This document shows, piece after piece, positions 3 through 24,053 of a stretch of 24,275 bases of DNA. The notes below the pieces were generated by a model, which saw nothing but the letters and a program-made list of their open reading frames with translations, was not told where the DNA came from and made no database searches. Origin of the DNA: a virus (taxonomy: Duplodnaviria > Caudoviricetes). The stretch is from positions 1-24,275 of the IMG/VR virus record IMGVR_UViG_3300025751_000149. One strand, given 5' to 3'. The position numbers and the translations under genes were made by a program. Every line of letters starts with the position of its first letter. The first letter of the stretch is position 1.

Positions 3-3089
<3,087 letters not shown>

Positions 3090-3096
3090 GTGAAAA

Positions 3097-3804
3097 ATGG
3101 CAGCGATTGATTTTCCAGAAAGCCCACAGGTAGGAGATACCTATACAAACGGTATTAACGTTTATCAGTGGGACGGAACAGCATGGCGTCTGGTTCGCAC
3201 TAGCGCTGTTGGACCCACCGGTCCAGCAGGTCCAGCAGGTGCTGATTCAAATGTCACTGGGCCTACAGGACCTACCGGCCCCTCTGTAACAGGACCTACT
3301 GGACCTGCTTCAACAGAGGTCGGACCAACCGGTCCTACAGGGCCTACTGGAACGTTTGCTATCTCTGCTTGGACTACGTACACACCTCAGTGGACTGCTG
3401 CTACAACTAACCCAACAGTTGGAGATGCCAGTGTTACCGCTCGATACGTTGCAATTGGTGCAACTGTTATCGGGGAAATTCGAATTACTGGTGGAAGCTC
3501 TGTTAACGGGTTTAACAGAGGTTCTGGTGCTTACAGTTTTTCGCTACCGACTGACGCTGTTGCTGCTACATATCAGCCAGTTGGTCAAGTGGTCATGCGT
3601 AACGAAGGACCGGGAAATCAGTTCTTCGGGACAGCGATTTTTACTAGCGTAACTAATGGAATTGCCAACACAATTCAGTGTTACATGCATAGCCAGACAG
3701 CAACAATTGACGAAGGTGTTGCAGCCACCGAGTCAACTCCGTTCCTTTTCGATGTGAACGACAAGATTCTGATTCAGTTCATCTACGAAGCAGATTTGAC
3801 GTAA
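3097..3804 (+). CDS. Short collagen-like fibre protein with MAAIDFP N-terminal module and tail-fibre-type C-terminal domain
   Basis: AGGTG SD upstream of the ATG. N-terminus MAAIDFPESPQVGD..YQWDGTAW, short GPT tract, then 'WTTYTPQWTAATTNPTVG..ARY..IG.TV...GSGAYSFSLP', a motif I associate with phage fibre/minor tail proteins. Confidence 0.88.
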   Translation: MAAIDFPESPQVGDTYTNGINVYQWDGTAWRLVRTSAVGPTGPAGPAGADSNVTGPTGPTGPSVTGPTGPASTEVGPTGPTGPTGTFAISAWTTYTPQWTAATTNPTVGDASVTARYVAIGATVIGEIRITGGSSVNGFNRGSGAYSFSLPTDAVAATYQPVGQVVMRNEGPGNQFFGTAIFTSVTNGIANTIQCYMHSQTATIDEGVAATESTPFLFDVNDKILIQFIYEADLT

Positions 3805-3813
3805 GGGTAGATA

Positions 3814-5697
3814 ATGGCAGCGATTGACTTTCCCGATAGTCCAAATGTAAACGACACGTTTACAGTTGGTCCGCAGACTTGGATTTGGACAGGCACTGCG
3901 TGGGACTTGACTGTAGCGCCAGTGATTGGACCTACTGGTCCCACCGGTCCGCAGGGTGCTGCTTCAAACGTAACTGGGCCCACTGGTCCGACAGGTGCTT
4001 TCACCATTTCGGAAGACACTCCTCCATCTAATCCAGATGAAGGAGATGCTTGGTTCAATTCCTCTACCGGTCAAATCTACGTTTATTACGACAGCTACTG
4101 GGTTGAGTCTGCTTCTAGCAATGTTGGCCCTGCTGGAGCAACTGGCCCGACTGGAGCAACTGGTCCACAGAACATCACCCCGGGACCTACAGGTTCAACC
4201 GGACCAACAGGTGCAACTGGTTCTCAAGGAAACACCGGACCTACTGGTCCCCAAGGTCTTTACGTAGAAGGACCTACTGGACCTCAGGGTCCAACAGGAC
4301 GACAGGGCCCGACCGGTGCTCAGGGAGAGCGTGGCGTTGAGGGACCAATTGGTCCTATCGGACCTACAGGTCCACTAGGCCCGACCGGAGCAGACGGCCT
4401 TCTTGGTGCTACTGGTTCCCCGGGGCCTACTGGTCCGACTGGTCCTCGTGGATTCCAAGGTGCAACAGGTGCTCAAGGACCGACTGGTGCAACTGGTGCT
4501 TCGGTAACTGGTGCAACAGGTTCAACTGGACCGACTGGTCCCTCGGGTGGCCCCACGGGAGCGACCGGCCCGACAGGACCAACTGGTGCGACGGGTGCTC
4601 AAGGCGAGCTTGGTCTTCGTGGAGCAACTGGCCCTACCGGTGCGACGGGTGCCGCTTCAACGGTTGCTGGACCTACAGGTCCGACAGGTGCATCTATTAC
4701 TGGACCCACGGGACCCACGGGTGCCATTGGAATCACCGGTCCTACAGGACCTTCGGTAACTGGTGCAACAGGCCCAACTGGCGCTGAGGGTCTCGGTTAT
4801 GGAGGCATTACCTCTACAACGAACATCATTATTGGTGCCGGTAATAAAACATTTACAGTCAACGACCCGGGTGCCTTTGCTATCGGTGGTCGTATTCGAT
4901 TTGCCGCTCTTTCCCAGCCGCAGGATTACATGGAAGGTGTTATTACTGGTGTTGCTGGCCTCAGCATCACATTTGTTTCTGATATCTACAACGGAACTGG
5001 TAACACTTACAACTCTTGGTTGGCAAGCATTGGTAGTGGCCCTACAGGACCAGCTGGCGCTACAGGACCCGTTGGACCATCAATCAACATTAAGGGAACA
5101 GTTGCCAACTTTGCGTCACTTCCCTCTTCAGGCAACGTTATTAACGATGGTTGGATTACCGAAGACACAGGAAGTCTCTATGTGTGGTCTGACCAGTCAA
5201 CGTGGGTTGATGCTGGACAAATTGTTGGAGCAACGGGGCCGACAGGAGCAACTGGTCCATCAATCACAGGACCAACCGGACCAACTGGCGCAGCTTCTAC
5301 AGAAGTTGGGCCCACCGGTCCGACCGGCCCATCCGTCACTGGTGCAACAGGCCCAGCCGGTCCTACTGGTCCCGCTTATTACGAGCTCGTTGGTAATCAG
5401 TATCTAGAGAACACGGTTCTTGACGAAGAAGATGGAGCCAGCATCGTCAAGATAAACAGCTCCGTGTCCACGACAGTGACTGTTCCAGCAGACGGGGCAA
5501 ACGGTTACACGTTCCCGACAGGAACTCAAATTGTTATTACCCAGCTTGGTGTCGGTCAGGTAACTATCCAAGGAGACACCGGAGTTGTTGTGTTGAGCGA
5601 GGGAGCCAGATACACAACCAAAGCTCGATACGCAATTGCTTCTCTCATCAAACTATCCAGCAACTCTTGGCTACTGAGCGGAAACTTGTCGGCGTAA
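3814..5697 (+). CDS. Collagen-like fibre protein with MAAIDFP N-terminal module, knob domains and a C-terminal beta-domain ending ..WLLSGNLSA
   Basis: AAGGG SD-like motif, long G-X-Y tract, both knob types, internal '[23 protein letters not shown]' module, C-terminal 'TVTVP....[19 protein letters not shown]...LIKL..NSW..SGNL'. Confidence 0.9.
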
Positions 5698-5699
5698 TC

Positions 5700-6617
5700 A
5701 TGCTTATTTCAACCCATGCGATGCACGCAACCCTCCCCGTGCCCTTTGTGGCAGCGGGGTGGACTTTGGTTGCCGATTCGACTTTTGGGACGACAACTAT
5801 AAACACAATTACATCCAACAGTTTTGGTCAATACATTGTTGCCGGGAACTCAGGCAAAGTAGCCACTTCCACTGACAGCGGGTTTAGTTGGGTTGCTCGA
5901 ACATCGAACTTCAGTACGAGCAATATTTACTCTTCTGCGTACTACGACGGTCTTTACATGATTGGCGGAAGTTCTGGAAAAATTGCTACATCAACTGATG
6001 GAATTACGTGGACTTTAAGAGCTTCTGGTTTCGGAGCTAGCGCTGTTTTAGGAATAACTTATGCACCATCTGCTTCGCTTTGGATTGCTGTTGGAGGCTC
6101 CGGAAAACTAGCAACCTCGATTGATGGCATTGAGTGGGTACTGAGAACTTCTTCTTTTGGAACTTCTTTTATAAATGAGGTCTACGCAACCGAAACTTTT
6201 ATTATCGCTGTTGGCTACGACGGAAAACTTGCTACATCAACAAACGGTCTTGATTGGACGCAGAGAACTTCTTCGTTTGTTTATGACACCATCAACGATG
6301 TTGTAGCCAACGAAAGCAGGACTCAGTTTGTTGCTGTTGGTGACTCCGGAAAGATTGCTACATCATCTAACGGAACCTCGTGGACTCAGGTGTACCCACC
6401 TCCTTCTTTTGGTGCTTTTAGAATTACTTCGGTAGACGCAAACTCAGAAAGTTATGTTGCTGGCGGTACAGCCGGGAAGCTAGCAACTTCTCTTAGCGGA
6501 GTTGGGTGGACCCAGCGGCCTTCAAATTTCGGTCTCGACAACATCAATGCTGTTTTGCTGCAAGACAGTATCGGTATTGCTGTCGGGGGCTCCGGAAAGA
6601 TTGCGTATTCGGTATAG
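5700..6617 (+). CDS. 7-bladed beta-propeller with BNR/Asp-box (YCF48-like) repeats; putative receptor-binding protein
   Basis: Seven ~41-aa repeats 'A(V)G.SGK(L/I)ATS.(D/N)G..W..R.S.F'. The ATG at 5700, 2 nt after the upstream stop, is preferred over the TTG at 5667. Confidence 0.85.
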   Translation: MLISTHAMHATLPVPFVAAGWTLVADSTFGTTTINTITSNSFGQYIVAGNSGKVATSTDSGFSWVARTSNFSTSNIYSSAYYDGLYMIGGSSGKIATSTDGITWTLRASGFGASAVLGITYAPSASLWIAVGGSGKLATSIDGIEWVLRTSSFGTSFINEVYATETFIIAVGYDGKLATSTNGLDWTQRTSSFVYDTINDVVANESRTQFVAVGDSGKIATSSNGTSWTQVYPPPSFGAFRITSVDANSESYVAGGTAGKLATSLSGVGWTQRPSNFGLDNINAVLLQDSIGIAVGGSGKIAYSV

Positions 6618-6628
6618 GAGATATAAAG

Positions 6629-6796
6629 ATGTTTAAATATGTAATCATTCCAGATGGCCCACTTGTACAGATTATGTACGGTGACAACGTTATTGACGAG
6701 TGCGGTCCTTGGGAAAGTCTTGAAGCAGCAATCAATTGGGCAGAGGCTTATGTTGCGAGAAAAAATGCAGGAATCCCAGAACCAGTTATTCCATAA
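6629..6796 (+). CDS. Small hypothetical protein (55 aa), possible fibre accessory protein or chaperone
   Basis: Strong AGGAG SD (6616-6620) before the ATG at 6629: MFKYVIIPDGPLVQIMYGDNVIDECGPWESLEAAINWAEAYVARKNAGIPEPVIP. The 6506 start of the ORF track overlaps the previous gene and is unlikely. Confidence 0.8.
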   Translation: MFKYVIIPDGPLVQIMYGDNVIDECGPWESLEAAINWAEAYVARKNAGIPEPVIP

Positions 6797-6799
6797 AAG

Positions 6800-6805
6800 T
6801 ACAAT
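6800..6805 (+). promoter_or_regulatory. Putative -10 element (TACAAT) overlapping the AT-rich palindrome AATAATTATT (6803-6812)
   Basis: AT-rich intergenic gap upstream of a very strong SD (AAAGGAGG); no clear -35. Confidence 0.4.
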
Positions 6806-6836
6806 AATTATTTAGAGGATAGAAAGGAGGAGTACA

Positions 6837-7487
6837 GTGGCAGCAATTGATTTCCCAACCCCCACAGTTGTAGGTGAAGAGTTCACCGCTGGAAACAGCA
6901 CTTGGGTGTGGACAGGCACTGTTTGGGAGCTAAAGCGCACTGCTCCCACTGGTCCTCAGGGTCCACAAGGTATTCAAGGACCAACAGGTGCAACTGGTGC
7001 TAAGGGTGACACAGGTCCTCAAGGTATTCAAGGTGCTACAGGACCCGTTTCTGACGTTGCTGGTCCGCAGGGACCCACAGGTCCAACTGGTGTTCAAGGA
7101 CCCACTGGACCTCAAGGTATTCAGGGTGAACTTGGTACTCAGGGTCCAACAGGTCCCACAGGTGCTGACTCGAACGTAACCGGGCCTCAAGGTCCCACGG
7201 GTCCTCGTGGGCAAACTGGTCCTACCGGTTCGACTGGCCCTCAGTCTGAAGTTCCCGGTCCAACGGGTCCAACGGGTCCGGTAGGTAAGTTCATTGCTAG
7301 TCCGGTTCAGCCAGACATTGGATTGGCTACTGATGGAGATACTTGGTTCGATACCGGAACTGCCATTACATATGTTTTCTATAACGGTGTTTTCGTTAGA
7401 ACTCAGGGCGGGCAAACCGGACCGACTGGCCCCCGGGGCTTGCAGAGTACCTACGCAGTCTCGACTGCGTGGTGGTTAGGCGTATAA
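6837..7487 (+). CDS. Short collagen-like fibre protein with MAAIDFP N-terminal module
   Basis: GTG start after AAAGGAGG. N-terminus paralogous to the 3097 and 3814 genes, GPQ/GPT tract, one '[15 protein letters not shown]' knob, ends AWWLGV. Confidence 0.88.
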
Positions 7488-7572
7488 TATGCTGATTTCT
7501 TCGATTTCTACGAAATCACACCGTACTTCCGGTGTTATCCTATTTGTTGGGCTGTCTTGGTGTGAAAGAGGT
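7453..7572 (+). promoter_or_regulatory. Structured regulatory region upstream of the 823-aa gene
   Basis: Palindrome ACGCAGTC-TC-GACTGCGT (7453-7470), TATAAT (7483-7488), hairpins GATTTC-TAC-GAAATC (7503-7517) and ACACCG-TACTTC-CGGTGT (7518-7535), extended -10-like TGTTATCCT (7533-7541), SD AAGAGGT (7566-7572). Confidence 0.45.
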
Positions 7573-7580
7573 AATGAATA

Positions 7581-10052
7581 ATGCCCGGTTTTCTTGGCGG
7601 TAGCAGCGGCACTGGTGGCGGCACTGGTGGCGAAATCTCATTCCCGAAAGAGTTCATCGACCCAGTAACTAAGCTGCGTGTATCCACACCAGCCAACCTT
7701 ATTGACACCGACTTTGAGTACGGTCTTCAGCCCACCAAGTGGGAGACACTAGAGCTAATTAACAACACCCCTTCGTTCTTCTCGAAGTCGGGTGACACGA
7801 CCATCCCCAACATCAGTGCAATTAACACGATTCAGGGTTCTCGTGAAGTTACCGTCACAACAAGTCTGGACCACGGGCTTTCCGTCGGTATTCCCATCAA
7901 CGTAAACGGTACAAAGTCCATCACTGCAGATGGCGCTTACATCATCAACTCGGTACCTACCGCCAGAACCTTCACATATCTAGCCAAGGAAAATCAGTTT
8001 TTTACAGCCGCCATCGAAGACCTCTATACCTCGATTGTGACTGGCGAGTTCTTCCAAGGCTCGCAGATTCGTATTGCTGATTCGCACGGTTTGGTGACTG
8101 ATGCAGCGACTCCCTCAACTCTGACTGTTACAACAGAGAGTCCTCATGGTTTTGGTATCAATACACCTTTCTACTTTCTGAATCTGAACTCCACTATTTC
8201 TCAGGAGTTTGATTCGACTAATACCGCCGCTAAAACTTTTGATTCCAGTAACAACTCAACAGCTCGTGTTTTTGATGCATCGAACACGGTGACATCAGCT
8301 AACTACGACTTTTCTAATAGAACTGCAAGCCTTCCGGCTAGCGTTGCGGGAAGTCCAATCGCAGGTGTCAGCGTCGAAAATAATACAATTACTGTTGGTC
8401 ATACAACAGAGACGTTTGAGAATCGAGCTATTGGCACTCCTCTTTACTACGACGTAGTTGCGTCTAGTGGCTACTTTGCCAACAAACCTCGTGGAGTTGT
8501 CTTCCTCAAGGGGACCGACTCTCTAGGGGCTTCCCTTTCCACATTTACGGTTAGTGAAATCCCCAACGGAGATGTAATCGACATTACGTCAGCAATGACT
8601 GGAACTTTCCAAGTTGCAGACTTGGTTGCGGAGTTTGCTGGTAATAACCAAGATTTCGACAGTCAAATCTCTTTAACCATTTCAAGAGGAACAGCTCACG
8701 AATTCGACGGAGACAACTCCGAGGGAGCTACCTACACGATAAACAGTATTAGTGGCCTTGGAAATATTGCCCTAAGCGGTGATAGCAACTGGTCTACCGG
8801 TCAGATGGTGTACTACAGCACAGACGGTGCGGCTGCTACAGGTCTCACAAACAACACCACATACTGGGTTACAGCAGGTAACCCATCAGCCAGTGTTATT
8901 AACATTACAGACACCCCCGACGGAGCAACCCTGACTGCCATTTCTGGCGGTACTGGAACCCAGACTCTGACCGCTACTTCTGTGTCTTTGGACAAAGATA
9001 TTTTGGCTGTTCCCGGTCACGATTTTGAAGAATCAGACATGGTTTTGTACTCGTACCCAGCCGGTGGAGCGATTACAACATCAGAAGCCGCTCAGAACTA
9101 TTACTACGTTCAGAATGTCTACCCAGACGGAACCCACATTCGTCTAACAACCACTAAAGGCTTTGTTCTCGATGGAACCACTGAAGCCCGTGCTGCTTCG
9201 AGTGGTCAACAGATTCTGAACGACAACCCGGCTGCAACTAGTGGCACTTACTGGATTAAGCCCCCCGGTGGAACAGTTGCATACCCGACTTATGTTGATA
9301 TGGACCTTGAAGGTGGTGGTTGGACGCAGATTATGAAGCTGTCCTACAACACACTGCTCAGTCCATACATCGGTCGCCCCGGTGGGGCAACCCATGCTGG
9401 TGCTGGCTACACCTACGGCCCAACTTGGGACGGCTGGGCGTGGAACCAAGACTCCGACTTCGACACCCTGTTTAACGACAGTTCGAATTCCGACTTCAGC
9501 GATGTTGACTCTTTCTCCAAGCTGTTTTACCAGCTCCCATTCAATGATGTGATGGTTGTGTCTATTGCCGACACAACTAAGCGTCTCGGATGGAGGCACA
9601 ACGCTCAGATTGCAAACATGAGAGCCGTTACTGGTGGGACCGACCTATCTACATACGGAGATGAGTGGTTGTTCCCGGCAGTGGCGCAGTTGGAGTACTC
9701 GTGGACCCGTCAGTTGGAGCTTTTCCCGAGTGCAAGGAACTACCAAGCTCAGACTCCAACAGTTTTTGGGTTCAAAGTTCTTTCCGACCGAGCAAATAAC
9801 TTCAGCTCTATCAACAGTTATATGACCGGTGGTTACGACCCAGTTACATCAAACAACGTAACCGGTCACGGTGCATCTATGATTGGTATGGGCGGTACTG
9901 GCGGCATTAGCGGGCGATTTGGTGGCGGTATCGGGTTTGCTTACACCTCCAACTATGCCTTCCGTGTTGGTGGTCACTTCTGGAATTCCAGCTTCAACAC
10001 AAACGTCACTAACTACCGACTTTTCACTGGTTTGGCAGTGTTCGTCAGGTAA
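7581..10052 (+). CDS. Large virion structural/adhesin protein: N-terminal 'DPVTKLRVS..LIDTDFEYGLQPTKWE' segment, His-Gly-type repeats and C-terminal fibrinogen-like domain
   Basis: 823-aa ORF with SD. Repeats are shared with the downstream giant ORF. 'DGTTEARAASSGQQI...SGTYWIKP...YVDMDLEGGGWT' from ~9170 matches the fibrinogen-like YCDxxxxGGGW signature. Confidence 0.85.
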   Translation: MPGFLGGSSGTGGGTGGEISFPKEFIDPVTKLRVSTPANLIDTDFEYGLQPTKWETLELINNTPSFFSKSGDTTIPNISAINTIQGSREVTVTTSLDHGLSVGIPINVNGTKSITADGAYIINSVPTARTFTYLAKENQFFTAAIEDLYTSIVTGEFFQGSQIRIADSHGLVTDAATPSTLTVTTESPHGFGINTPFYFLNLNSTISQEFDSTNTAAKTFDSSNNSTARVFDASNTVTSANYDFSNRTASLPASVAGSPIAGVSVENNTITVGHTTETFENRAIGTPLYYDVVASSGYFANKPRGVVFLKGTDSLGASLSTFTVSEIPNGDVIDITSAMTGTFQVADLVAEFAGNNQDFDSQISLTISRGTAHEFDGDNSEGATYTINSISGLGNIALSGDSNWSTGQMVYYSTDGAAATGLTNNTTYWVTAGNPSASVINITDTPDGATLTAISGGTGTQTLTATSVSLDKDILAVPGHDFEESDMVLYSYPAGGAITTSEAAQNYYYVQNVYPDGTHIRLTTTKGFVLDGTTEARAASSGQQILNDNPAATSGTYWIKPPGGTVAYPTYVDMDLEGGGWTQIMKLSYNTLLSPYIGRPGGATHAGAGYTYGPTWDGWAWNQDSDFDTLFNDSSNSDFSDVDSFSKLFYQLPFNDVMVVSIADTTKRLGWRHNAQIANMRAVTGGTDLSTYGDEWLFPAVAQLEYSWTRQLELFPSARNYQAQTPTVFGFKVLSDRANNFSSINSYMTGGYDPVTSNNVTGHGASMIGMGGTGGISGRFGGGIGFAYTSNYAFRVGGHFWNSSFNTNVTNYRLFTGLAVFVR

Positions 10053-10061
10053 CCCCAGTTG

Positions 10062-10090
10062 TATAATAAGAGAAGGTCTAAGAAGAGGAG
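10062..10090 (+). promoter_or_regulatory. Putative -10 element (TATAAT) and SD (GAGGAG) for the 2889-aa gene
   Basis: Perfect TATAAT at 10062-10067 and GAGGAG at 10085-10090 within a 48-nt gap. Confidence 0.55.
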
Positions 10091-10100
10091 CTGCTAGCAA

Positions 10101-13100
10101 ATGGCACTGCTAAACATCACCGCTGTGGGTGGAGCGGGAACGCACACTCTCCAGAAGACAAATGTCAATCTGGATGAAGATTTTGTGTACTTCCCCGGGC
10201 GTGACAGCGCTACTACGCTTTCCTCTCAAGTCACTGATGAGAGCGCTTGGGTCTTTCGTGAGGGGACGGGAGACCTAGTTGGTATCGACTCTGACAGTGT
10301 TTATTTTCTAAATGCTGACGATTTTAGCGTTGGGTTTTCCGCCACAGCAGGTGGTTCCAATATTGACATCACAAACTTTGCCGCAGGAACTGTAACTTTC
10401 AACTTCCCGAACGTTTACAACCAACAGTTCAACCTTTCTCAGGTCAAGTACGAAGACCAGCAAGCCGTCAAGTATGTAACAGACGGAGACGCAATTACTG
10501 GGCTTGTCTCTGGAAATGTTTACTACGTCAAAAATCTACTCACCGGTCTTGGCGGCTCTAGTACATACAACTTCACTACACACACCTTCACAACCGGCGG
10601 GGCAGAGGGTCGTTATGGCCCGACAATCAGCCAACTTCGCACAGAGTACGAGGGTGCGGGCGCTACTTGGGCCTCTCAGTACCTTTCTCAGGGGGACTAT
10701 CAGGGGTATCAGGACTGGGAAGTGCCAGTTGATGGCGTCTACGAGTTCCATGTAAAGGGCGCTTCTGGTCGGGTCGGTCGAGCCAACGCCGGTCTCGGCG
10801 CTGCTGTTAAGGGCCGAGTGCGCCTCAACCGTGGTGAAATTATTACGATTGCTGTTGGTCAGGTTGGTGAGCTTCCCCCCAACAACACCACATGGCCTGC
10901 TTCATCTGGTGGAACATTCGTAGTTCGCAAGGATGGCAATATTCCTCTGTTTGTTGCTGGTGGCGGTTCGTCTTCTTCTAATACAACTTCTGCTCGTAAC
11001 GCAAATGGAAATGGTCAGACAACCAACCAAGGTGGTCGTTCACAGCAGTACAACTCAGGTTTTGGTGTAGACGGTAACGGTGGTGCCGGTCGCTCGACTG
11101 GTGGTGCCGGTGGTGGCTTCTACGGAAACGGTGGAAACTCCGAGCGTGGTGGCGGTGGACAAGGCTTCCAGAGCGGTCTAATTGGTGGCTACCCTGCTGG
11201 TAGCTCCTCCGGCGGCGGTGGATTCGGTGGTGGAGCCGGTTCAGACGGTCAGACTTGGGGTGGCCCCGGTGCAGCCGGTGGTTACTCAGGTGGTGCAACT
11301 AACGCCCGTGTCGGTAGCTACTACTGCGGTGGCGGTGGCTCTTGGATTATCGCTACAGCTACAGATGTTGCGACTTCCACTGGAACATATAACGGTTCGT
11401 CTCAGCTTCTGGGTCGTGATATCACAACAATTGATTACAACGACTCTAACGCAGACGGTTCGGTTGAAGTAACTCTAGTTGAGTCTTCGGTGTATGGATT
11501 TGTTCTTCACCAGTCTCCCGAAGACGCTGCTCAAGACCTTAATGAGATTGAGGTTGAGCCAGCAGGAAGCTCTTACCACGCTCTTATCCCACTCACTGTG
11601 GATGTGGACTCCAACCAAGTTCATTTCACCAGCCCCCACGGGTTCTTTGCTGGTAAAGCCGTCAACTACTTCTACGAGGGAACACCAGTTTCCACTCTGA
11701 ATGAGTCTTCGGTCTACTACATCGACGTTGTGGATGACTATTCATTCCGTCTCAGCACAACTCCGGACCCCGACTACACAACTGTCAATCTGACTGCTGC
11801 TTCTTCAGCAACATCAGAAGGATTTAATGATGTCGTCGTTAACCTTGACACAAACAGCTTTACTGTTCCTAATCATGGGTTCTTGGCAAATCAGCCTGTT
11901 CGCTATCGAACAGATGAGCAGGACCCGATTGTCCCCCTGCAGGACAACGCTACTTACTATGTCAAGGAAGTAATTGACGCTAACCGATTCACTCTTAGCC
12001 AGTCCCTTGATGGACCAGTTCTTGACTTGACTGCCCTTGGTGAGGGTCGGGGCCACAGCTTCGTCTTTACCGTTGTAAACGAATTTGAAGACAGCATCTA
12101 CATCCCAAGCCACGGATTTGTTACCGGTCAAACAGTTCAGTACGCCAAATCTCGTGACTACGAGATTAAGCGTCTCTACTCAAGCGGTGTTTACAAGTAT
12201 GTAGATATCGACACAGACGGTGGGTTTGACGGCAACCAGTTCTTGCTGTTTGACAACGTTGAGCGTCCATCAGAGCGTGCTCTCTTCCCGCAGTTGGAAA
12301 TTACAAGTTTCCGTTCGTCCGGAACAACTCGCTACATCACAACAAGCGCCAATCACGGTCTCCAAAACCAAATGTTTGTTGAGGTCAGCGGTCTCCCAGC
12401 AACAAGTGTTGCTATTGACCGTCGTTGGAATGGGTTCTGGCGGGTTACTGGTATTCAGTCTGCTAACGAGTTCTCCTATACAGCAGAGGAAAGCTTTACA
12501 CAGAACGCTACGGATGGCCCTGAGGGCGCAGTCATGCAGCGTGACCTTGACTATGAGTACTTCCTTGGCGAGCGCCGAGTAAAGATTCGTGGAATTCAGT
12601 CCTCCGGTCGTAACCGCTACATCTACTGCGACCGTCCGCACTACCACGCCAATGGGTATCTCATCAAGATTGAGGGAATCCCGGATGAGAACTACGGTGG
12701 GTACTTCAACGGCGAGTGGTTCAAGTCTGCTGATTGGAACCCCGGGGCTCTGGGCGATATAAGCAGCGAGTACGGTTTTTACTGGACAGCTGGCTCATCT
12801 CCCATTGGCGAAGATGAGAACATCACGTTCCCCTACTTCCAGCTTCCCACTGATGTATATGCCACGGTGGTGGGCTTTGGTCGAATTGACAACATCGAGA
12901 CTGGCATTAATGGTGCCCGCACCCGCTTGCGTTACCGCAATGACTTCGCAAGCCTCACCCAAGCCGAAGAGCTTGATGTCAGCGGATTTGTGTCAAAGCG
13001 TGGTGGCTATGTAGAAAGCCGTCGTCTTGACCGCAGAACTCGTATTTACTTCAATCTTGACTACAACCACGACCGTATAGTTGGCGACCGCATCACGGTC

Positions 13101-16100
13101 AACAGCATGGAAGACCGCTTCCGTGATGTGTTCAACCGTCAGTTCTACGTCAGTCAAGTTATTGATGCTGACGAGCTTTACGCTGAGCTAGACGTTCCAG
13201 TATCTAAAGAAATCGAAAGCATTCGATTTGGCGATGCCACCGGCAATACAGGTCAATACAACGATATCTACATCAACTTTGCTGAAAAGCATGGTTGGAG
13301 TGATGGCGGAGACGCATGGTTTAACATGCGTGACTTTACTGACCAATCTGACAAACTGTGGTCTGGGGAATGCAACATCATCAACCGACGAAGCGAGGGT
13401 ACTCGTCGCTACATCACCACAGACAATCCTCATCGCCTTAGCACCAACTACCGTGTTCGAGTATTCAACTTTGATGACGGTGACGGTAACGAAGCCGAGT
13501 TCAACGGGGATTGGATTGTTGCTGGAACCAGTAATGCTACTGAGTTCTACTACGACGTAGATACAGGAAACAGCCTCACCACTACGAACGAGGCGGCTGG
13601 GGTTGTCTCTGGTCGCATCCGTCGTGCGTACTTCCTTGACGATGTTTTCAACACTGGAATTACGTGGCGTCGTCGTACTGGGAATGTTGTGAGGATGTAC
13701 CTAGATGCCAACCACGGTATGCAGGTTGGCGAATGGCTTCGCATCTCGAACTGTACCGGTTCGCAGCCAGAAGAGTTTAATGGCGAATGGCAGATTACTG
13801 CTGTCCCGAGCGCCCGTGAAGTTGAGTGGATTAGCCCCAATACGGGCACCATCGCTCAGCAGAACATCGACGGAACCGTTTGGGCTAGCCGACAGATTCG
13901 TGCCTTTGACGAGCCGCAATACACCTTTGCTGTTGCTGGTCGAGAAATGCTTTCTCACAACATTATTCAAATTGAAACCCAGTTCGAGCACGGTTTTGAT
14001 TCTGGAATGACTGTCAACATCAGTGGTATGTCTGGCAACAACACTGGAGTTTTCAACGGAACATTTGACGTAATCAGTGCTGTTGATGACACCCATTTCA
14101 CGTTGACAAGGCCCACTCAGACCAACGTTACGCAGTTCAATGTTACAAACAGAAGTAGGACTTCGTTCCTGTGCGATGTAACTTTGAACACAACGCACAA
14201 CTTCCAACCGGGCGACACGGTAGTCATTTCGAATATGACTGGAACCAACATCGAGTCCTTCAACGGAACTCATGTGATTACAGCTGTACCTGCTACCAAC
14301 AGAATTCAATTTGTTGACCCGCTTGGTGGCGACGGAACAATTGCTGCTGCTTCGGTAACAGGAGTTTGTCAGCTAGAGCGAGTCCCCCTTGCAGCATCTA
14401 GCGGGACAATTCGACTCAATAGCTACAACAGCTCTGGATATAACATCACTTCATACGCCGACCTTGTAGAGACATCGACTGATGGCTACAACGGCATTAT
14501 GGTCACTGACACCGCAATCCCGGGTCTTAACAACCGTGACACGTACTACGTCCAAAAGGTTGACGACAATACAATTCGCTTGTCTGAGGACCCAAGTTTT
14601 GTCAACATCGCTGACATTCAGGGTGTTGGTGTTGGCAACCACTCTATTATCAACAAGTCAGTTGATTACGAGAATGACACAATCACCATTCCAAACCACG
14701 GATTCTCACTTGCAGAACTTGTCGAGTACGACACTGGTGGCGGAACTGCAATCGGCGGTTTGACTACAGCTACTCCGTATTATGTGGTTCCCATTGATGG
14801 AAACACTTTGCAGCTGGCTACATCTGTATCCAACGCAAACAACGGTGTTGCTATTGATTTGACAACAGCTACAACCCCGACTGGCAACCACACGTTGAAG
14901 TCCTTGATTAGAACTCCTGATGGCACATACACCATTAGTAATGTTCCAAGCTCTACAACATTCGAAGTAACTGCTAACGGTTCAGTTCCTGAAATTGTCA
15001 AGACCTTTGACCCGCAGTTCACGGTTGACCTAGAGCAAAACGTCATCAAGATTCCTTCTCACGGGTTCTTGACTGGAACCAAGGTTACATACAGCCCCAA
15101 TGGGGGGACTGCTCTTGGTGGTCTAACTGCTGACACGGTGTACTACGCAATTGCTGTCAACAAGGACTTCATCAAAATTGCTGACACAGCGGAAAACGCT
15201 GCTTCTGGCATCCCTCTCCATATTCTAACAATTGGAGCAGGAACCGAGCATCTATTTACTTCAGCCCAAATCAACGGTCAGATTACTGGTACCGGTACCG
15301 TAAGTACCGAAGTTGATTCGGTGTTGGTGAACGGTTCAGGTACCACCTTCTCCAAGATTCTGAAGGTTGGCGATGTATTCCGCCTCTTCCCGCCAGACAT
15401 TGAGTTGAAGTCATACTTTGAAGCATCAGATGTTGATGATTCAGCTGACGAGATTCTTGCTGCTAACCATCCGTTTGTGACGGGTGAGTCCGTGCTGTTC
15501 AATGCTGGCTCCGGTGGTCGTCGTGTCGGTATCTCAAGAATCCAGAGCTCTGGAACAACTCGATACATCTACACAAGCGAGACCCACGGGTACTCAATTG
15601 GAGATACAGTCACCATCTCTGGGCTTAGCAGTGATGACGCTGAGGACTTTGAGGGTACGTATGTTCTTACATACGCCACTGGTCAGGAAATCCGTTACAC
15701 GGCATCTGAAAGCTTCACCCTTGGTGTCGAGAACCAAGACTGGGGCGGTGTAGTAGACCCAGAAGGTCCAGATGGTGTTGCTCCAGCACCACTCATCAAC
15801 GACCGTTACTACTATGTTCGTCGCATTGAGGATGCTGCTGTTCGAGCAATTACTGCTCGTTATCGAACAAGCAATGTTGTCAGAATTACAACAAGCGCTG
15901 CTCACAACTTGCAGCCCGGTAACGTTGTAACAATTGACAGCATTACTGGTGTAAGCCCAGAGGTGTTCAACGGAACGCACACAATTATTGCGGTGCCATC
16001 GTCCACCACATTTGAGTTCAACTCAAATGGAGCAAACATCTCTAACGCTGGTGTCACAGGCAATGTGAACAACACAAGTAGCAACCTTGTGACACTACAC

Positions 16101-18770
16101 CCGAGCTATGAAGATGCGTTGGCTAACACAAATGCCATTGACCTTGCTACTCAAGGTTCTGGTAGCCAGTTGTACCTCAACCACGTTACGCCGTCTGCTC
16201 CTATCATTCGTGAGATTGCAGCTATCGGTTCGGATGAGCAGGTCACCGTAAGTCGCCCATACACGACGGCTTACGAGAATGTTTCCTACTCGTACCCGAC
16301 CTTCGTATACGTGCGTCCTCAGGGGTACTCACTACACCGCCCGTTCGACGGTGGTGTTGAAATGTCTACCGGTGCTGATACTTGGTACGGGTCGATTGTT
16401 CGTCAGACCCGTAAGTACTTCCGTTACCAGTCCGGTAAGGGTATCCAGACTTCGGCTGCTGTGAACTTCAAGCCCAGCATTGACATCGAAACAATGTACC
16501 GAGTTGGAACCTCGAACGTTGTTCAGATTCGTACCCGACGCCCGCACGGTCTCATCAACGGTCTGTTTATTCGAGTTGACGACGCCAAGGACCAGTACGG
16601 CGTAGACAGCCCCGTCTACAACGGAACCTTCCAAGTAACCGTGATTGACTCGTTCAACCTCACTGTTATTTCCCAGCAACCTATTGTTGAGCCGGTCGTC
16701 TACGGATACCCGAGACTCCACGTTGACGCTTGGACAAACGGTGCTATTCGTTCCGGTATGTTCGACTTCCAGAACGGTATGTTCTACGAGTTCGACGGTC
16801 AGAAGCTCTACGCAGTTCGTCGTTCTTCGACTCAGCAGATTGCCGGAACGTTCGCCTGCCTGCAGGGTTCCGAGAAGGTATTTGGCACCAACACGGCGTT
16901 CGAGACGCAGCTGAATGTTGGCGACTACATCGTCCTTCGTGGTCAGTCATATCGCATTGCTGACATTGAGTCAAATGACCGTCTTACGATTAAGCCCGAA
17001 TACAAGGGTGCTTCTGGTACAGAACGTGAATTTGACCCAAGCACTGTTGTAAATACGACCACAGATACCTTCACCATCCTGAGCCACGGGTACACCCAAG
17101 ACCTTCCTGTGGTCTACAACTCAATTGATGGTGAGCCGGTTGGTGGTTTGGTAAACGGACGTACTTACTACGTTGAGGTTCTGACAAGCAACACCTTTAA
17201 GCTGAAGGCAAGCCCAGACGCCGGAACTACCGTAAACCTTTCTTCGCAGGGGACAACAACAGTCCACTCGTTTACTCCTGCTAAGACGGGCATTATTGGT
17301 ACGTTGACTGTTGACACCAAGATTCCTCAGGAAGATTGGAGTTTGGACCCCTGTAACGGAACTGGTCCTACTGGCTACAACCTTGACCTGTCCAAGATTC
17401 AGATGGTTTACATGGACTACTCGTGGTACGGTGCCGGTAAAATTCGATTCGGCTTCAAGACCGTCGAAGGTCAAGTTAAGTACGTACACGAGTTCACTCA
17501 CAACAACCAGTTGTTTGAGTCCTACTTCCGCTCTGGTAACTTGCCAGCTCGTTACGAAGTCACAACCTTTGCGAACCCGACATACATCCCGTCGCTGTTC
17601 CACTGGGGTACTTCGGTCATCATGGACGGTGAGTTTGACGACGACAAGGCGTACTTGTTCACCAAGTCAAGCCAGACTCTTAACATTGGTGGTACGACCT
17701 CTAAGACATTTGGTTCAAATGCTCTGAGCAACATCACTGATGTTATCAACATTCCGTCACATGGTTTCTCTGATGGAGATGCTGTTCAGTTCTTGGGACT
17801 TGGTTCAAACGGTCTGCCTCAGAACAACAACCAAAACCCACGAACCCAGTACGTAGGGTCTTACTATCCGTATGACTACCTAATCAACGAAACCACGTAC
17901 TACATCAAAACTGTTGATGATAACAACATTGCTCTGGCGTTCACCGAAGCTGATGCTACGAGAAGTGAAGTTCCCATCACTAGCATCTCAAAGTCAAACT
18001 ACTTGGTAACTGTTGACACGAATGGCAGCCACAATCTACAAGTAAATGATTACGTGTTCATTCGTATTAGCCCTCAATACACGAACTACCTTGCTTACTC
18101 TGGGGTAGTCCGAGTGTCTCAGATTGTTGATGCCAACACATTTAGGTACTACCAATACAGCTACCAACGTAGTTCCAGCACCATCAGCAACCCGCAGAAC
18201 TCGTTCTTCCAGCGGAACATTATCAACTTCTACAACAGTGGAAACTCGCAGTCCACTTACAAGTTGTCTCCGCAAGGTTCGTTGAACAATACGTCTGGTA
18301 CTAACTACCAGCCACTCATCTCTATCCGACTGAGCCCCTCGGTTTCAGAAGGTTTGACGGGTGCATTGGGTGACCGAGACGTTATTAACCGAATGCAGTT
18401 GCGTCTGCAGGAAGTTGGTGTTCAGACCAACGAGTTGATTGATGTGAAGATTCTTCTGAATGGACGACTCAATAACTTGAACTTCATCGCTGTAGAATCA
18501 CCATCGCTGGTTCAAGTCGTGGAGCACACATCAAATGACACCATTTCCGGTGGTATTCAGGTGTATAACTTCAAGGCATCTGGTAACAACGGTGTTGAGC
18601 AGTCAACTAACGTTGATGTGAGCGACTTGTTTGAGCTCTCAAACTCCATCCTCGGAGGTGACTCGGTGTTCCCGGACGGGCCCGACATCCTCACCGTGGC
18701 GGTTGCTCGTCTGACCGGTCAAGAAACATTGGCCTCAGCGAAACTGTCATGGGGCGAGGCTCAGGCGTAA
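10101..18770 (+). CDS. Giant (2889 aa) modular virion structural protein with 'HGF..G..V.Y' repeats, FCCH-like beta repeats, an ALK/LTK-like Gly-rich domain and a conserved C-terminal core
   Basis: Many 'IP.HGF..G..V.Y....GL....YYV....F.L' and 'T...H....G..V.IS....FNG...(I/V)T.V...F' units. Gly-rich domain ~10580-11480. Core motifs RQTRKYFRYQSGKG, GMFDFQNGMFYEFDG and MDYSWYGAGKIRFGF. No signal peptide. Confidence 0.88.
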   Translation: MALLNITAVGGAGTHTLQKTNVNLDEDFVYFPGRDSATTLSSQVTDESAWVFREGTGDLVGIDSDSVYFLNADDFSVGFSATAGGSNIDITNFAAGTVTFNFPNVYNQQFNLSQVKYEDQQAVKYVTDGDAITGLVSGNVYYVKNLLTGLGGSSTYNFTTHTFTTGGAEGRYGPTISQLRTEYEGAGATWASQYLSQGDYQGYQDWEVPVDGVYEFHVKGASGRVGRANAGLGAAVKGRVRLNRGEIITIAVGQVGELPPNNTTWPASSGGTFVVRKDGNIPLFVAGGGSSSSNTTSARNANGNGQTTNQGGRSQQYNSGFGVDGNGGAGRSTGGAGGGFYGNGGNSERGGGGQGFQSGLIGGYPAGSSSGGGGFGGGAGSDGQTWGGPGAAGGYSGGATNARVGSYYCGGGGSWIIATATDVATSTGTYNGSSQLLGRDITTIDYNDSNADGSVEVTLVESSVYGFVLHQSPEDAAQDLNEIEVEPAGSSYHALIPLTVDVDSNQVHFTSPHGFFAGKAVNYFYEGTPVSTLNESSVYYIDVVDDYSFRLSTTPDPDYTTVNLTAASSATSEGFNDVVVNLDTNSFTVPNHGFLANQPVRYRTDEQDPIVPLQDNATYYVKEVIDANRFTLSQSLDGPVLDLTALGEGRGHSFVFTVVNEFEDSIYIPSHGFVTGQTVQYAKSRDYEIKRLYSSGVYKYVDIDTDGGFDGNQFLLFDNVERPSERALFPQLEITSFRSSGTTRYITTSANHGLQNQMFVEVSGLPATSVAIDRRWNGFWRVTGIQSANEFSYTAEESFTQNATDGPEGAVMQRDLDYEYFLGERRVKIRGIQSSGRNRYIYCDRPHYHANGYLIKIEGIPDENYGGYFNGEWFKSADWNPGALGDISSEYGFYWTAGSSPIGEDENITFPYFQLPTDVYATVVGFGRIDNIETGINGARTRLRYRNDFASLTQAEELDVSGFVSKRGGYVESRRLDRRTRIYFNLDYNHDRIVGDRITVNSMEDRFRDVFNRQFYVSQVIDADELYAELDVPVSKEIESIRFGDATGNTGQYNDIYINFAEKHGWSDGGDAWFNMRDFTDQSDKLWSGECNIINRRSEGTRRYITTDNPHRLSTNYRVRVFNFDDGDGNEAEFNGDWIVAGTSNATEFYYDVDTGNSLTTTNEAAGVVSGRIRRAYFLDDVFNTGITWRRRTGNVVRMYLDANHGMQVGEWLRISNCTGSQPEEFNGEWQITAVPSAREVEWISPNTGTIAQQNIDGTVWASRQIRAFDEPQYTFAVAGREMLSHNIIQIETQFEHGFDSGMTVNISGMSGNNTGVFNGTFDVISAVDDTHFTLTRPTQTNVTQFNVTNRSRTSFLCDVTLNTTHNFQPGDTVVISNMTGTNIESFNGTHVITAVPATNRIQFVDPLGGDGTIAAASVTGVCQLERVPLAASSGTIRLNSYNSSGYNITSYADLVETSTDGYNGIMVTDTAIPGLNNRDTYYVQKVDDNTIRLSEDPSFVNIADIQGVGVGNHSIINKSVDYENDTITIPNHGFSLAELVEYDTGGGTAIGGLTTATPYYVVPIDGNTLQLATSVSNANNGVAIDLTTATTPTGNHTLKSLIRTPDGTYTISNVPSSTTFEVTANGSVPEIVKTFDPQFTVDLEQNVIKIPSHGFLTGTKVTYSPNGGTALGGLTADTVYYAIAVNKDFIKIADTAENAASGIPLHILTIGAGTEHLFTSAQINGQITGTGTVSTEVDSVLVNGSGTTFSKILKVGDVFRLFPPDIELKSYFEASDVDDSADEILAANHPFVTGESVLFNAGSGGRRVGISRIQSSGTTRYIYTSETHGYSIGDTVTISGLSSDDAEDFEGTYVLTYATGQEIRYTASESFTLGVENQDWGGVVDPEGPDGVAPAPLINDRYYYVRRIEDAAVRAITARYRTSNVVRITTSAAHNLQPGNVVTIDSITGVSPEVFNGTHTIIAVPSSTTFEFNSNGANISNAGVTGNVNNTSSNLVTLHPSYEDALANTNAIDLATQGSGSQLYLNHVTPSAPIIREIAAIGSDEQVTVSRPYTTAYENVSYSYPTFVYVRPQGYSLHRPFDGGVEMSTGADTWYGSIVRQTRKYFRYQSGKGIQTSAAVNFKPSIDIETMYRVGTSNVVQIRTRRPHGLINGLFIRVDDAKDQYGVDSPVYNGTFQVTVIDSFNLTVISQQPIVEPVVYGYPRLHVDAWTNGAIRSGMFDFQNGMFYEFDGQKLYAVRRSSTQQIAGTFACLQGSEKVFGTNTAFETQLNVGDYIVLRGQSYRIADIESNDRLTIKPEYKGASGTEREFDPSTVVNTTTDTFTILSHGYTQDLPVVYNSIDGEPVGGLVNGRTYYVEVLTSNTFKLKASPDAGTTVNLSSQGTTTVHSFTPAKTGIIGTLTVDTKIPQEDWSLDPCNGTGPTGYNLDLSKIQMVYMDYSWYGAGKIRFGFKTVEGQVKYVHEFTHNNQLFESYFRSGNLPARYEVTTFANPTYIPSLFHWGTSVIMDGEFDDDKAYLFTKSSQTLNIGGTTSKTFGSNALSNITDVINIPSHGFSDGDAVQFLGLGSNGLPQNNNQNPRTQYVGSYYPYDYLINETTYYIKTVDDNNIALAFTEADATRSEVPITSISKSNYLVTVDTNGSHNLQVNDYVFIRISPQYTNYLAYSGVVRVSQIVDANTFRYYQYSYQRSSSTISNPQNSFFQRNIINFYNSGNSQSTYKLSPQGSLNNTSGTNYQPLISIRLSPSVSEGLTGALGDRDVINRMQLRLQEVGVQTNELIDVKILLNGRLNNLNFIAVESPSLVQVVEHTSNDTISGGIQVYNFKASGNNGVEQSTNVDVSDLFELSNSILGGDSVFPDGPDILTVAVARLTGQETLASAKLSWGEAQA

Positions 18771-18782
18771 GGAGAGGCGCAG

Positions 18783-19871
18783 ATGGCTATTCAAAGACTT
18801 GCTGCGGCAAGGCCACAAGCAAATGTCGATACAGGCATGGTTACATTTACGGACAGCTATTTGGTGTCCGTGGTTGTCACCAACATCTCACCTTCGGCAA
18901 CCCCAATTCCTAGAGTAGCCATTTTCATTGTTCCCTCAGGAGCGTCAACAGAAGGTTCCTACGTTTACCTTGCAAATAATCTAGACATCGGTTTCGGGCA
19001 AAGTTTTGAGACTTTTAGATTTGCTGTAAACCCGGGTGACGGTCTATTTGTTAGGTCTTCTCAGGCTACGGTGTCTTTTAGCGCTTATGGTCTTCTCCAA
19101 GACGATGCAATTGGTCAAGGAGATTTGTCTCTTACGTTTACAAACAAAGTTATTCGTGGCGTAGACAACACTCTTTACTTAGACATCGGGGATACTGCAG
19201 ACCGACGCTCTGATGCCGAGGTTGGCTATGTCCGCTTCAATACCGAGTACAGCGCCCTTGAGGTTCTGACAGGTAGCGAATGGGAGCTTGTTGGTACCGG
19301 AACTGGGGACGGAGCTACTGGACCGACTGGACCTACAGGTCCCATCGGTGACACGGGACCAACCGGTCCTGAAGTAACCGGTCCCACCGGACCCACCGGG
19401 CCCACTGGACCTTCTGGAGGACCAACAGGACCAACTGGAGCCACAGGACCAACAGGCCCGGGTGGCGGTGCAATTGACGTTGCCAACACAACAGATACAA
19501 CAACCTTTGTTGGTCTTTATGAGGACGCCACCGGAACCATTGGTGGTAAAACAAACTCTGGAATTGTGTACAACGCCAGTACAGAGGTTCTTACGGTAAC
19601 GGCAGTCGAGACGGGTTCAATCAACGCTCCGTCTAGTTTGACCGGTACCTACACCCTCACATCACCTACAACCATCACGCTGGACCCAGTTGATGAAATC
19701 ATCAACGATGCTCCGATGAAGCTGGTCAGTAAGACAGTCCTTGAGCTGTCAACCTTGGTATCAAGTGCGGGTTCTATCGTCTACTGCACAGATGAAACTG
19801 GCGGACCAGTTCTTGCTTTTTATGACGGTACTGACTGGCGGAGGGTGACCGACCGAGCGGTGGTCCAGTAA
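18783..19871 (+). CDS. Short collagen-containing structural protein with an 'ETFRF' N-terminal beta-domain
   Basis: AAGGAGAGG SD. N-terminal ~110 aa is paralogous to the 21511 gene. Contains 'GYVRFNTE...LE' and C-terminal '[27 protein letters not shown]' fibre-type motifs and a short GPT tract. Confidence 0.85.
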
Positions 19872-21436
19872 TGTCTGACGAGTTGCGGGAGTACACAGTT
19901 ACCGCACCAGACATGGATATCACAGATTCCATCTGGGACGACCTGCTCACTGATGCGCCAACTCCTGACACAATCCCCGACAGGTCAGTGGAAGTAGCTA
20001 ACGAGCGTACAAACAATCCTCGCAACACTTCTTACTTTCTTACTGATGCTGAAGCCGAGGCTCTTCGTCAGGACCCTCGTGTAGAGGCTGTAGAGAATGT
20101 CTCCGAAATCCCCGTGCGAAAGCGTGCTTTTCTAGACGGAAATTTCAACAAGCTAACAACCCAGACCGGAGAAAAGCAGAACTGGGGCCTGCTGCGTCAC
20201 ATTAATGCGACGAATGTTTTTGGGACTTCCACTTCTGACCCCGGTGGAACTTATGATTATGTTCTAGACGGCACGGGAGTAGATGTCGTAATTGTTGACA
20301 GCGGAATTCAAGCTGACCACCCCGAGTTCGAAGATGCTGAAGGTAACAGCAGGATTCAGCAAATTGATTGGTATACCGCCAGTGGCGTTTCTGGTTCAAT
20401 GCCAGCAGGGTTCTACGTTGACTACGACGGACACGGAACTCATGTTGCCGGAACAGTGGCAGGCAAAACTTTCGGCTGGGCAAAGAATGCCAATATTTAT
20501 GTCATTAAGTTGGCTGGCCTTGAGGGTGCGTCAGACCCTGTAGGAGGCATGAGCGCTGCAGACGCTTTTGACTGCATCCTTGGGTGGCACAACAATAAAA
20601 CCAATGGAAACCCCACGGTTGTTGTGAATAGTTGGTCGTACATCATCTACTGGGATGAAGCGACCGACGAACTTACTTACAACGAAGTCACTTACTATCC
20701 GGTAACAGGTGGTTCCTATCAAGGTGTACCGCATAGCGATACAACAAAGGACACTGCTAAGGGTTTAACTGGTCAACAAGTTGATACAACACTTTTTGTT
20801 TTCAATCAGAGAGTCGCCTCAGTAGATGCTGATATTGCCTCAATGATTAGTGCTGGAATTGTTGTGTGCAACGCTGCTGGCAATGGCGGTCTGAAGCACG
20901 ATGTGTCCGGTGGAGTTGATTACGATAACTACGTGACAGCCACCGGTCTGTCAAACTTCTACTACCACAGAGGTGCCTCTCCTTCCGTTAACGGCTCTTC
21001 TGGATTTGAGGTTGGCTCATTTGGCACAAACTTCATCGGTGGTGTGGAGGCAAAGTCTGTTTACAGCGATGCTGGCCCCGGAGTAAATATTTATGCCGCT
21101 GGGGACAGAATTATTAGTGCTTACAGCATTACCAATGCAGATTCTGCCAGCAATCCTTACTACTTAGACAATGGGTATTACCAGCAGGTTCTTTCCGGGA
21201 CTTCCATGGCTACTCCTCAGGTAGCCGGAATGTGTGCCCTGCTTTTCCAAGCTCACAGGGACTGGACACCTGCTCAGGTTGTTGGCTGGATGCAGGGAAA
21301 TTCTAAGACTATCCTGCACACCACGGGCCTCAGCGATGACTACTCCACCACAAACAGCGTGTACGGCGGACCAAATAGGATTGCTTACCTGCCAATGGCT
21401 GGTCAAAGACCATTTTCCCTAAGTGAAGTAGCATAA
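19871..21436 (+). CDS. Subtilisin-like serine protease (peptidase S8) with N-terminal propeptide-like region
   Basis: Catalytic triad motifs VVIVDSG (Asp 20297), HGTHVAG (His 20432), GTSMATP (Ser 21203) and oxyanion AAGN. I9-like 'LTDAEAEALRQDPRVEAVE'. TAATG overlap with the upstream gene. Confidence 0.95.
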   Translation: MSDELREYTVTAPDMDITDSIWDDLLTDAPTPDTIPDRSVEVANERTNNPRNTSYFLTDAEAEALRQDPRVEAVENVSEIPVRKRAFLDGNFNKLTTQTGEKQNWGLLRHINATNVFGTSTSDPGGTYDYVLDGTGVDVVIVDSGIQADHPEFEDAEGNSRIQQIDWYTASGVSGSMPAGFYVDYDGHGTHVAGTVAGKTFGWAKNANIYVIKLAGLEGASDPVGGMSAADAFDCILGWHNNKTNGNPTVVVNSWSYIIYWDEATDELTYNEVTYYPVTGGSYQGVPHSDTTKDTAKGLTGQQVDTTLFVFNQRVASVDADIASMISAGIVVCNAAGNGGLKHDVSGGVDYDNYVTATGLSNFYYHRGASPSVNGSSGFEVGSFGTNFIGGVEAKSVYSDAGPGVNIYAAGDRIISAYSITNADSASNPYYLDNGYYQQVLSGTSMATPQVAGMCALLFQAHRDWTPAQVVGWMQGNSKTILHTTGLSDDYSTTNSVYGGPNRIAYLPMAGQRPFSLSEVA

Positions 21437-21465
21437 AGTCAGGGTTGGGTATAGATGATGTGTAG

Positions 21466-21493
21466 TAAACTAGATAATAGATTTCCTAGGAAA
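21466..21493 (+). promoter_or_regulatory. Putative -10 element (TAAACT) followed by the perfect palindrome TTTCCTAGGAAA
   Basis: TAAACT at 21466-21471 and a 12-bp palindrome at 21482-21493 in a 74-nt intergenic gap. Confidence 0.35.
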
Positions 21494-21510
21494 GTGACGG
21501 TGGCTGTCTA

Positions 21511-24053
<2,543 letters not shown>

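Follow-up and report, generated by a model that had tools for sequence, protein, structure and literature searches.

Introduction

Neither strand complementation nor the encoding of an adhesin in a gene of its own is new in principle. In chaperone-usher pili, donor-strand complementation lets the N-terminal strand of one chain complete the fold of another, and in the long tail fibre of phages T4 and T2, gp37 forms a hairpin needle while the adhesin gp38 is encoded separately. The locus that we report here would draw on these known principles in an architecture that is itself undescribed. It resembles gp37/gp38 in its predicted out-and-back fibre and in its separately exchangeable tip, but we found no homology between the two, the outgoing chain itself bears the tip, and the shaft would consist of barrels common to two gene products. 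It differs from chaperone-usher pili in its fold, and no chaperone was seen: domain and family searches of the two genes and their neighbours gave no match to an Ig-like pilin fold, a chaperone or an usher. Whereas those pili are polymers, the locus would encode a heterodimer that arose by gene fission, with strand exchange predicted at many repeats.

The family concerned is PHROG 5838, or T4-like gene cluster 863, annotated as "virion structural protein" (S-PM2 p175, S-BM3 SBM3_00190); the presumed virion location of its members rests on this family annotation. In the available passages of PMC2984593 and PMC3037559, p175 and cluster 863 are not named. Fused members form one chain of 1095-2890 aa, whereas in the window (the whole stretch of 24,275 nucleotides that we analysed, IMG/VR record IMGVR_UViG_3300025751_000149, from a virus of the Caudoviricetes) collinear core segments, FCCH-like barrels and the same C-terminus are divided between two genes, and the window's clade adds an arm of His-type repeats and a terminal head. 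A literature search in which subscription titles were thinly covered, and which included the accessible parts of PMC10611076, PMC2984593, PMC3037559, PMC13576161, PMC13612043 and PMC8185196, returned no description of this split.

Results

Two genes correspond to one polypeptide of related phages

ORF1 (7581..10052, plus strand; 823 aa) encodes an outgoing arm (residues 1-527) followed by an exchangeable head, and ORF2 (10101..18770, plus strand; 2889 aa) encodes the returning arm, which has six His-type repeats, as well as inserted domains and most of the core. The two lie in the same reading frame within the window, separated by 48 nt (10053..10100, plus strand) that hold a -10-like TATAAT (10062-10067), a Shine-Dalgarno-like GAGGAG (10085-10090) and an in-frame TAG (10095-10097), and the coordinates confirm this layout as it was given in the initial annotation. 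The common frame is incidental, since the 52 distinct gaps of the clade split 22/14/16 over the three frames. We rejected a clade-wide internal promoter because a promoter scan gave no -35 partner for the TATAAT, and a similar hexamer occurs in 11 of 49 short gaps. In three loci (L031, L040 and L087, 3 of the 52 distinct gaps) an ORF of 114-125 aa lies between both genes and may encode a chaperone or tip partner.

Collagen-like fibre genes flank the pair (window positions 3-7487 and 18783-24053); those at 3097, 3814 and 6837 have an N-terminal motif in common, and those at 18783 and 21511 a different one. A subtilase lies within the fibre block (19871-21436; Peptidase_S8, E 3e-25) and is possibly a maturation or surface protease. 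Upstream of ORF1, at 7461-7535, there is a sigma-70-like match (10/12) with a terminator-like hairpin, in numbers equal to chance.

Both ORFs map in order on PHROG 5838: residues 25-195 of ORF1 match profile positions 102-275 (E 2e-21) and residues 2068-2308 of ORF2 match positions 320-560 (E 6.6e-131), the rest of the core being collinear. This establishes the homology of the two proteins to one fused family and bears out the proposal that one ancestral gene now exists as two. The proposal had drawn on two motifs that normally occur in one phage polypeptide, namely the N-terminal segment of the ConA/GH16-like core (7659..7745, plus strand; ORF1 residues 27-55, the rest of the core being in ORF2) and a second motif at 16401-16442. 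Both indeed lie in one CDS in S-PM2 p175, S-BM3 and MW202722, and a search for single chains that cover the N-terminus of ORF1 and the C-terminus of ORF2 found them in cyanophages. The second motif falls inside the C-terminal core region (16305..18767, plus strand), which contains nested barrels and is collinear with the part of S-PM2 p175 that starts near residue 308 and reaches to the end of the protein.

Each core query matched 44 phage records. Among 80 cyanophage-type loci, both motifs lay in one ORF in 73, none was split and 7 were incomplete; another set of 80 loci held 55 fused, 16 split and 9 uninformative cases, and 15 of these 16 belonged to the window's clade, the other (L111) having a lone break inside the core. 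The domain of about 90 aa that precedes the core is absent here, so that the core begins at about residue 18 as against about 90-100 in most fused relatives. Two distant relatives, L108 (9950-15541) and L105 (8288), likewise have no such domain; L108 is fused and a candidate sister of the split clade, and was left out of the tree described below. A Pfam scan of 23 distant relatives found little.

The split is fixed at one site

The initial annotation had judged that the split looks fixed. All 15 loci of a first set are split at the same site, as are 70 of the 81 loci of a second set, in which the contigs of the other 11 end inside ORF1. Every one of the 70 informative loci of this freshwater clade thus has the same junction and two ORFs, and we regard the locus as a split variant of PHROG 5838. 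These loci include redundant contigs, two of them almost identical to the window, and comprise 55 distinct ORF1 sequences. In a quick, midpoint-rooted tree of the C-terminal core, built from 48 split and 37 fused rows that each had 200 or more aligned residues, a branch with SH-aLRT 100 separates the split rows from the fused ones. Thus the split is fixed at one site across a clade that occupies one side of a tree branch.

In the databases, relatives of the ORF2 start have it at their N-terminus in 82 of 82 cases, all of which have an ORF2 without the first core segment, and all 16 longer matches to the arm were ORF1 proteins with longer heads rather than fusions. A scan of metagenomes (1/64 parts) gave 8 loci, and the two examined both have the two ORF homologues in order. 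Our non-exhaustive search of database relatives and part of the metagenomes found no fused relative with exactly this arm, so the state before the split and the order of events were not seen.

The Actinomycetia phage DSL-LC01 (OQ999401) has the same split and the same head type as the window, in genes annotated "hypothetical" and "ALK tyrosine kinase receptor" (WJZ48559 and WJZ48558). It was assembled from a metagenome, its host is predicted to be actinobacterial, and its split genes are not discussed in the available part of its description (PMC10611076); the same host prediction applies to the clade as a whole. This closest annotated genome encodes a tape measure and a major tail protein, with no sheath annotated. 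Its region L266:44323-45420 holds a UDP-galactopyranose mutase and glycosyltransferases, of interest beside an intelectin-like head.

That the junction is an assembly artefact or marks a decaying pseudogene is extremely improbable. Single records do carry other breaks, in the core of L111 (5926-5938) and in ORF2 of L049 (14418-14936), which are likely errors or deletions. Against this reading, the junction is identical in the 70 loci and both ORFs remain open down to about 50% identity. The coverage check suggested by the initial annotation excluded misassembly, as DNA contigs from X4, X8 and X11 bridge 9161-10101 without indels; those from X10 cover the junction piecewise.

A second possibility, also very unlikely in our view, is that complementation in trans is not needed because the two products are covalently linked afterwards or arise as a single chain through splicing, readthrough, frameshifting or ribosomal bypass. 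In its favour, the ORFs share one frame in the window, and skipping 9162-10103 would restore an intact repeat. Across the clade, however, the gaps range from 3 to 380 nt in all three frames, hold a further ORF in 3 of 52 cases, and carry a Shine-Dalgarno-like motif in 39 of 49 short gaps. Contigs from RNA libraries of two studies (X17, X18) span the gap unspliced, although DNA carry-over is possible and the contigs do not prove transcription, and no joint that skips the head is among the matches listed for the contigs of four RNA runs. Because the gaps do not keep frame and the RNA contigs are unspliced, readthrough is excluded and splicing is unsupported. Pfam gave no intein match, and positions 9100-10300 contain one weak inverted repeat and no direct repeats. 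Across the clade we thus found none of the marks of a split intein, an intron or recoding, whether a frame-keeping gap, a splice joint or an intein domain.

ORF2 begins with the strand that the last ORF1 repeat has lost

As proposed in the initial annotation, the last His-type repeat of ORF1 ends at 9161 and is followed by a fibrinogen-like domain. Its body, without a tail strand, spans 8976..9161 (plus strand; ORF1 residues 466-527), and the tail strand that completes it in our model lies at the N-terminus of ORF2 (10101..10151, plus strand), where G10, G13 and H15 are invariant in 49 rows. A tail profile built from intact repeats of fused relatives, with the search seeded by five intact ORF2 repeats, scored 52 distinct ORF2 N-termini at a median of 16.25 bits (minimum 7.7; window 16.5), compared with a median of 1.8 (maximum 8.0) for 251 other ORF starts and of 2.8 (maximum 14.8, with 16 above 8 bits) for 1040 shuffles.

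The same HMM recovered an intact ORF1 repeat tail in 0 of 29 control cases, and a PSSM was used for ORF1 instead. The start of ORF2 outscored the sequence after the cut ORF1 repeat in 50 of 50 pairs (medians 21.2 and 0.2), and a tail was called at the ORF2 start in every pair, and in one pair behind the truncated repeat body; five of the 55 ORF1s were omitted as their anchor was not located, and the positive control was weak, since 25 of 50 intact ORF1 tails scored above 8. When the whole-repeat HMM is aligned to ORF1, the match extends to residue 543, 16 residues inside the head, and the cut point consequently rests on the tail test, the alignment and the model. By HMM, above its controls, and by PSSM, ORF2 begins with the missing tail strand, which substantiates the claim that it opens with the tail lost from ORF1.

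A predicted zipper between the two chains

We modelled ORF1 residues 200-530 with ORF2 residues 1-660 as one heterodimer. The complex reached an ipSAE of 0.77 in three runs against 0.00 for the best of 3 controls; of 157 solved complexes 116 reach the mark applied, as do 2 of 215 mismatched pairs, figures that hold roughly for our own alignments. Halves of split genes tend to pass such a test because they resemble intact repeats that the predictor has learned. At least 88% of the contacts are common to the runs, and the partner has a pLDDT of 84 in the complex compared with 64 beside an unrelated chain. Reassembly of the junction repeat across chains, as first suggested, thus passed against controls at the level of prediction; the model supports binding but does not show it, and its contact map is more informative than the ipSAE score.

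In this map, ORF1 strands 487-491 and 373-375 flank residues 15-20 of ORF2 on either side, and ORF1 349-353 pairs with ORF2 493-496. The predicted interface also includes ORF1 residues 227-248 and 361-380 and the ORF2 repeat tails at 93-106, 565-580 and 646-656, and its 412-420 confident contacts extend to the tails of four further ORF2 repeats. The ORF1 residues concerned fall in outgoing strands with the Phe motifs F210, F220 and F231 (8190..8324, plus strand), of which 227-248 contact ORF2 in the model, and in the linker strands 347-380 (8619..8720, plus strand). The top contacts join H15 and H493 of ORF2 to F375 and F352 of ORF1, respectively, residues that hardly vary, if at all, across 49 rows. 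The ORF1 repeat at 385-465 is absent among the contacts listed, which is not evidence of absence. A strand of one chain is thus predicted to complete a domain of the other, conserved Phe strands of ORF1 pairing with His-bearing tail strands of ORF2 repeats, and complementation is predicted along several more repeats than the single junction repeat of the initial annotation.

For inter-chain covariation the alignment offers about 38 effective sequences. The spacing of the ORF1 Phe motifs is almost constant across the clade and the return point of ORF2 is nearly fixed, while ORF2 accepts large insertions inside its repeats. One is a glycine-rich domain in the second repeat (10548..11480, plus strand; residues about 150-460; phrog_22713, and PF12810 on relatives), and another, in the window's subclade, is a block of FCCH-like barrels of about 780 aa in the fifth repeat (12159..14501, plus strand). 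Strain differences also cluster at 11117-11290 in the glycine-rich domain, a second variable module of which one X4 contig has a divergent version, and the 12159-14501 block is missing from L051 and L060, the two other loci with the window's head type.

It might be argued that contact between the chains is confined to the junction repeat, where they would form an adaptor that holds the tip, and that the zipper and shared core are overstated or completed by homo-oligomers. Consistent with such an arrangement, the least-error contacts are mostly at the junction strand, the core motif is of low confidence even in a fused model, and a single heterodimer was modelled. We nevertheless consider it quite unlikely, given the confident contacts that reach four more ORF2 repeat tails, the nearly fixed motif spacing and return point, and the first core segment missing from ORF2 in all 82 relatives.

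Core and barrels

The AlphaFold model of fused S-PM2 p175 (pLDDT 79) matches GH16/ConA jelly rolls over residues 119-898 (Z 14.2, rmsd 3.0, 175 aligned), a jelly roll that is seen in the predicted structure of this homologue and not in the window's own chains; the core motif itself (residues 112-128) has a pLDDT below 50, and Foldseek with the whole model gave nothing meaningful. In this fused protein, the core fold is predicted to begin in an ORF1-type segment and to end in ORF2-type sequence, and from its model we infer that the core of the split clade may assemble in trans.

ORF1 folded alone is confident from about residue 246 on, while most of residues 1-245, its most conserved part, have a pLDDT below 50; the 13 same-head relatives share 95% identity over residues 18-75, which are unfolded in the ORF1-only model. 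The low confidence of residues 1-245 may come in part from a shallow alignment, since they include an intact barrel that should fold alone. This FCCH-like beta-barrel (7830..7988, plus strand; residues 84-136) is matched by HMM at E 1.8e-8, and its S-PM2 equivalent matches an endosialidase barrel with Z 11.3. FCCH barrels face outward on siphovirus tail tubes, according to the accessible text of PMC13576161. A second FCCH-like barrel appears to be divided between the chains. Its first half (8118..8189, plus strand; ORF1 180-203) was placed by eye, the HMM giving only E 0.8, and its putative second half (14916..14975, plus strand; ORF2 1606-1625), which the HMM did not match, was placed by eye on a conserved motif. 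This barrel is intact in S-PM2 and interrupted by a nested insertion in L103, L108 and L124; the PHROG 5838 family is built by nested insertion.

The head at the cut end is exchanged among unrelated folds

The head of the window (9162..10052, plus strand; ORF1 residues 528-823, 296 aa) was described initially as lectin-like, and profile and Foldseek searches make it a member of the fibrinogen family closest to intelectins. It matches human intelectin-1 along the full length of the profile (E 5e-8) and intelectins are its top Foldseek matches (probability 1.0); Pfam Fibrinogen_C scored 17.5 bits, below the cut-off of 22, and the ESM Atlas gave no match with the head. The fold of intelectins (human intelectin-1, 4wmq/6usc; Xenopus XEEL) is matched along the full length of the head, but at about 15% identity and a TM to target of 0.42-0.49. 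At what we take to be the acidic calcium ligands of the intelectin sugar site, a weak alignment places Thr, Ser, Ala or Gly in the head. Intelectin-1 binds galactofuranose via calcium, as stated in the available part of PMC8185196; as these ligands are not evidently kept, that specificity is not transferable and we claim no ligand.

Heads of 55 ORF1s fall into clusters of 20, 17, 6 and 2 with ten singletons. Among 28 heads scanned, 3 match Fibrinogen_C (below cut-off), 14 start with He_PIG, 9 have Gly_rich_2 without He_PIG and 2 have no match; the 16 longer relatives have Gly_rich_2, one of them also LamG. Unrelated folds therefore occupy the same junction, intelectin-like here and Ig or glycine-rich in relatives, and this exchange goes beyond the initial annotation. 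Head class changes at least 5 times on a tree of the ORF1 arm and 9 times on the core tree, where 2 is the minimum possible, with the labels of L061 and L054 set by eye. An independent strain (X8) differs over ORF1 307-823 by 10 amino acids; each of these lies in the head, 8 of them within 716-804, and they may represent one recombined patch. A diversity-generating retroelement was rejected as their source, the differences not being adenine-specific and 9100-10300 holding no direct repeat in the 24-kb contig; a distant template could lie beyond that contig.

Could the split be a tolerated accident, with chains that reassemble and a head that is decoration or a spacer rather than a receptor-binding module? 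The head has no known ligand and does not evidently keep the intelectin calcium ligands. Fused relatives, moreover, vary in the same region without a split, so variation does not depend on a free end. We still hold this to be unlikely, because the head folds are of types typical for surface binding, heads have been exchanged repeatedly, strain differences are located in the head, and the gene lies among collagen-like fibre genes. It is likely that the split frees an end to carry an exchangeable tip of sugar-binding type.

Discussion

The reading that we favour, and consider probable, is that ORF1 and ORF2 fold together non-covalently into an antiparallel out-and-back fibre with a shared jelly-roll base and an exchangeable receptor-binding head at the turn. 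The fused state would be ancestral. The first strands of ORF1 would be seated in the jelly-roll core, and its outgoing strands would zip antiparallel onto the repeat tails of ORF2, whose own N-terminal strand would fill the tail place of the last ORF1 repeat. Beyond the modelled region, F210 and F220 would serve the fifth and sixth ORF2 repeats, and the zipper would close the second FCCH barrel from its halves in the two chains. The head, at the turn of the hairpin, would bind a host surface glycan.

A more far-reaching version, which we put forward tentatively and rate at slightly under an even chance, is that one chain serves as a spine along its whole partner, giving a strand to each of six barrels, to the split FCCH barrel and to the jelly-roll base. 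The cut at the turn would then create a swappable cartridge, whose adhesin, be it intelectin-like, Ig or glycine-rich, determines the host range of abundant freshwater actinophages.

The finding offers an architecture, of nested domains and an out-and-back fibre, for a widespread phage virion family that has been without a structure. It also presents a gene fission that became fixed in the middle of a domain and that the phages apparently tolerate since its halves zip together. As a natural split barrel, the pair is a candidate for orthogonal protein coupling, and the occurrence of an intelectin-like fold on a phage is relevant to the origin of the intelectin lectin family. Finally, the C-terminal domain of ORF1 is the likely host-recognition module of an abundant, uncultured clade of lake phages, and this head can be expressed and tested without phage culture.
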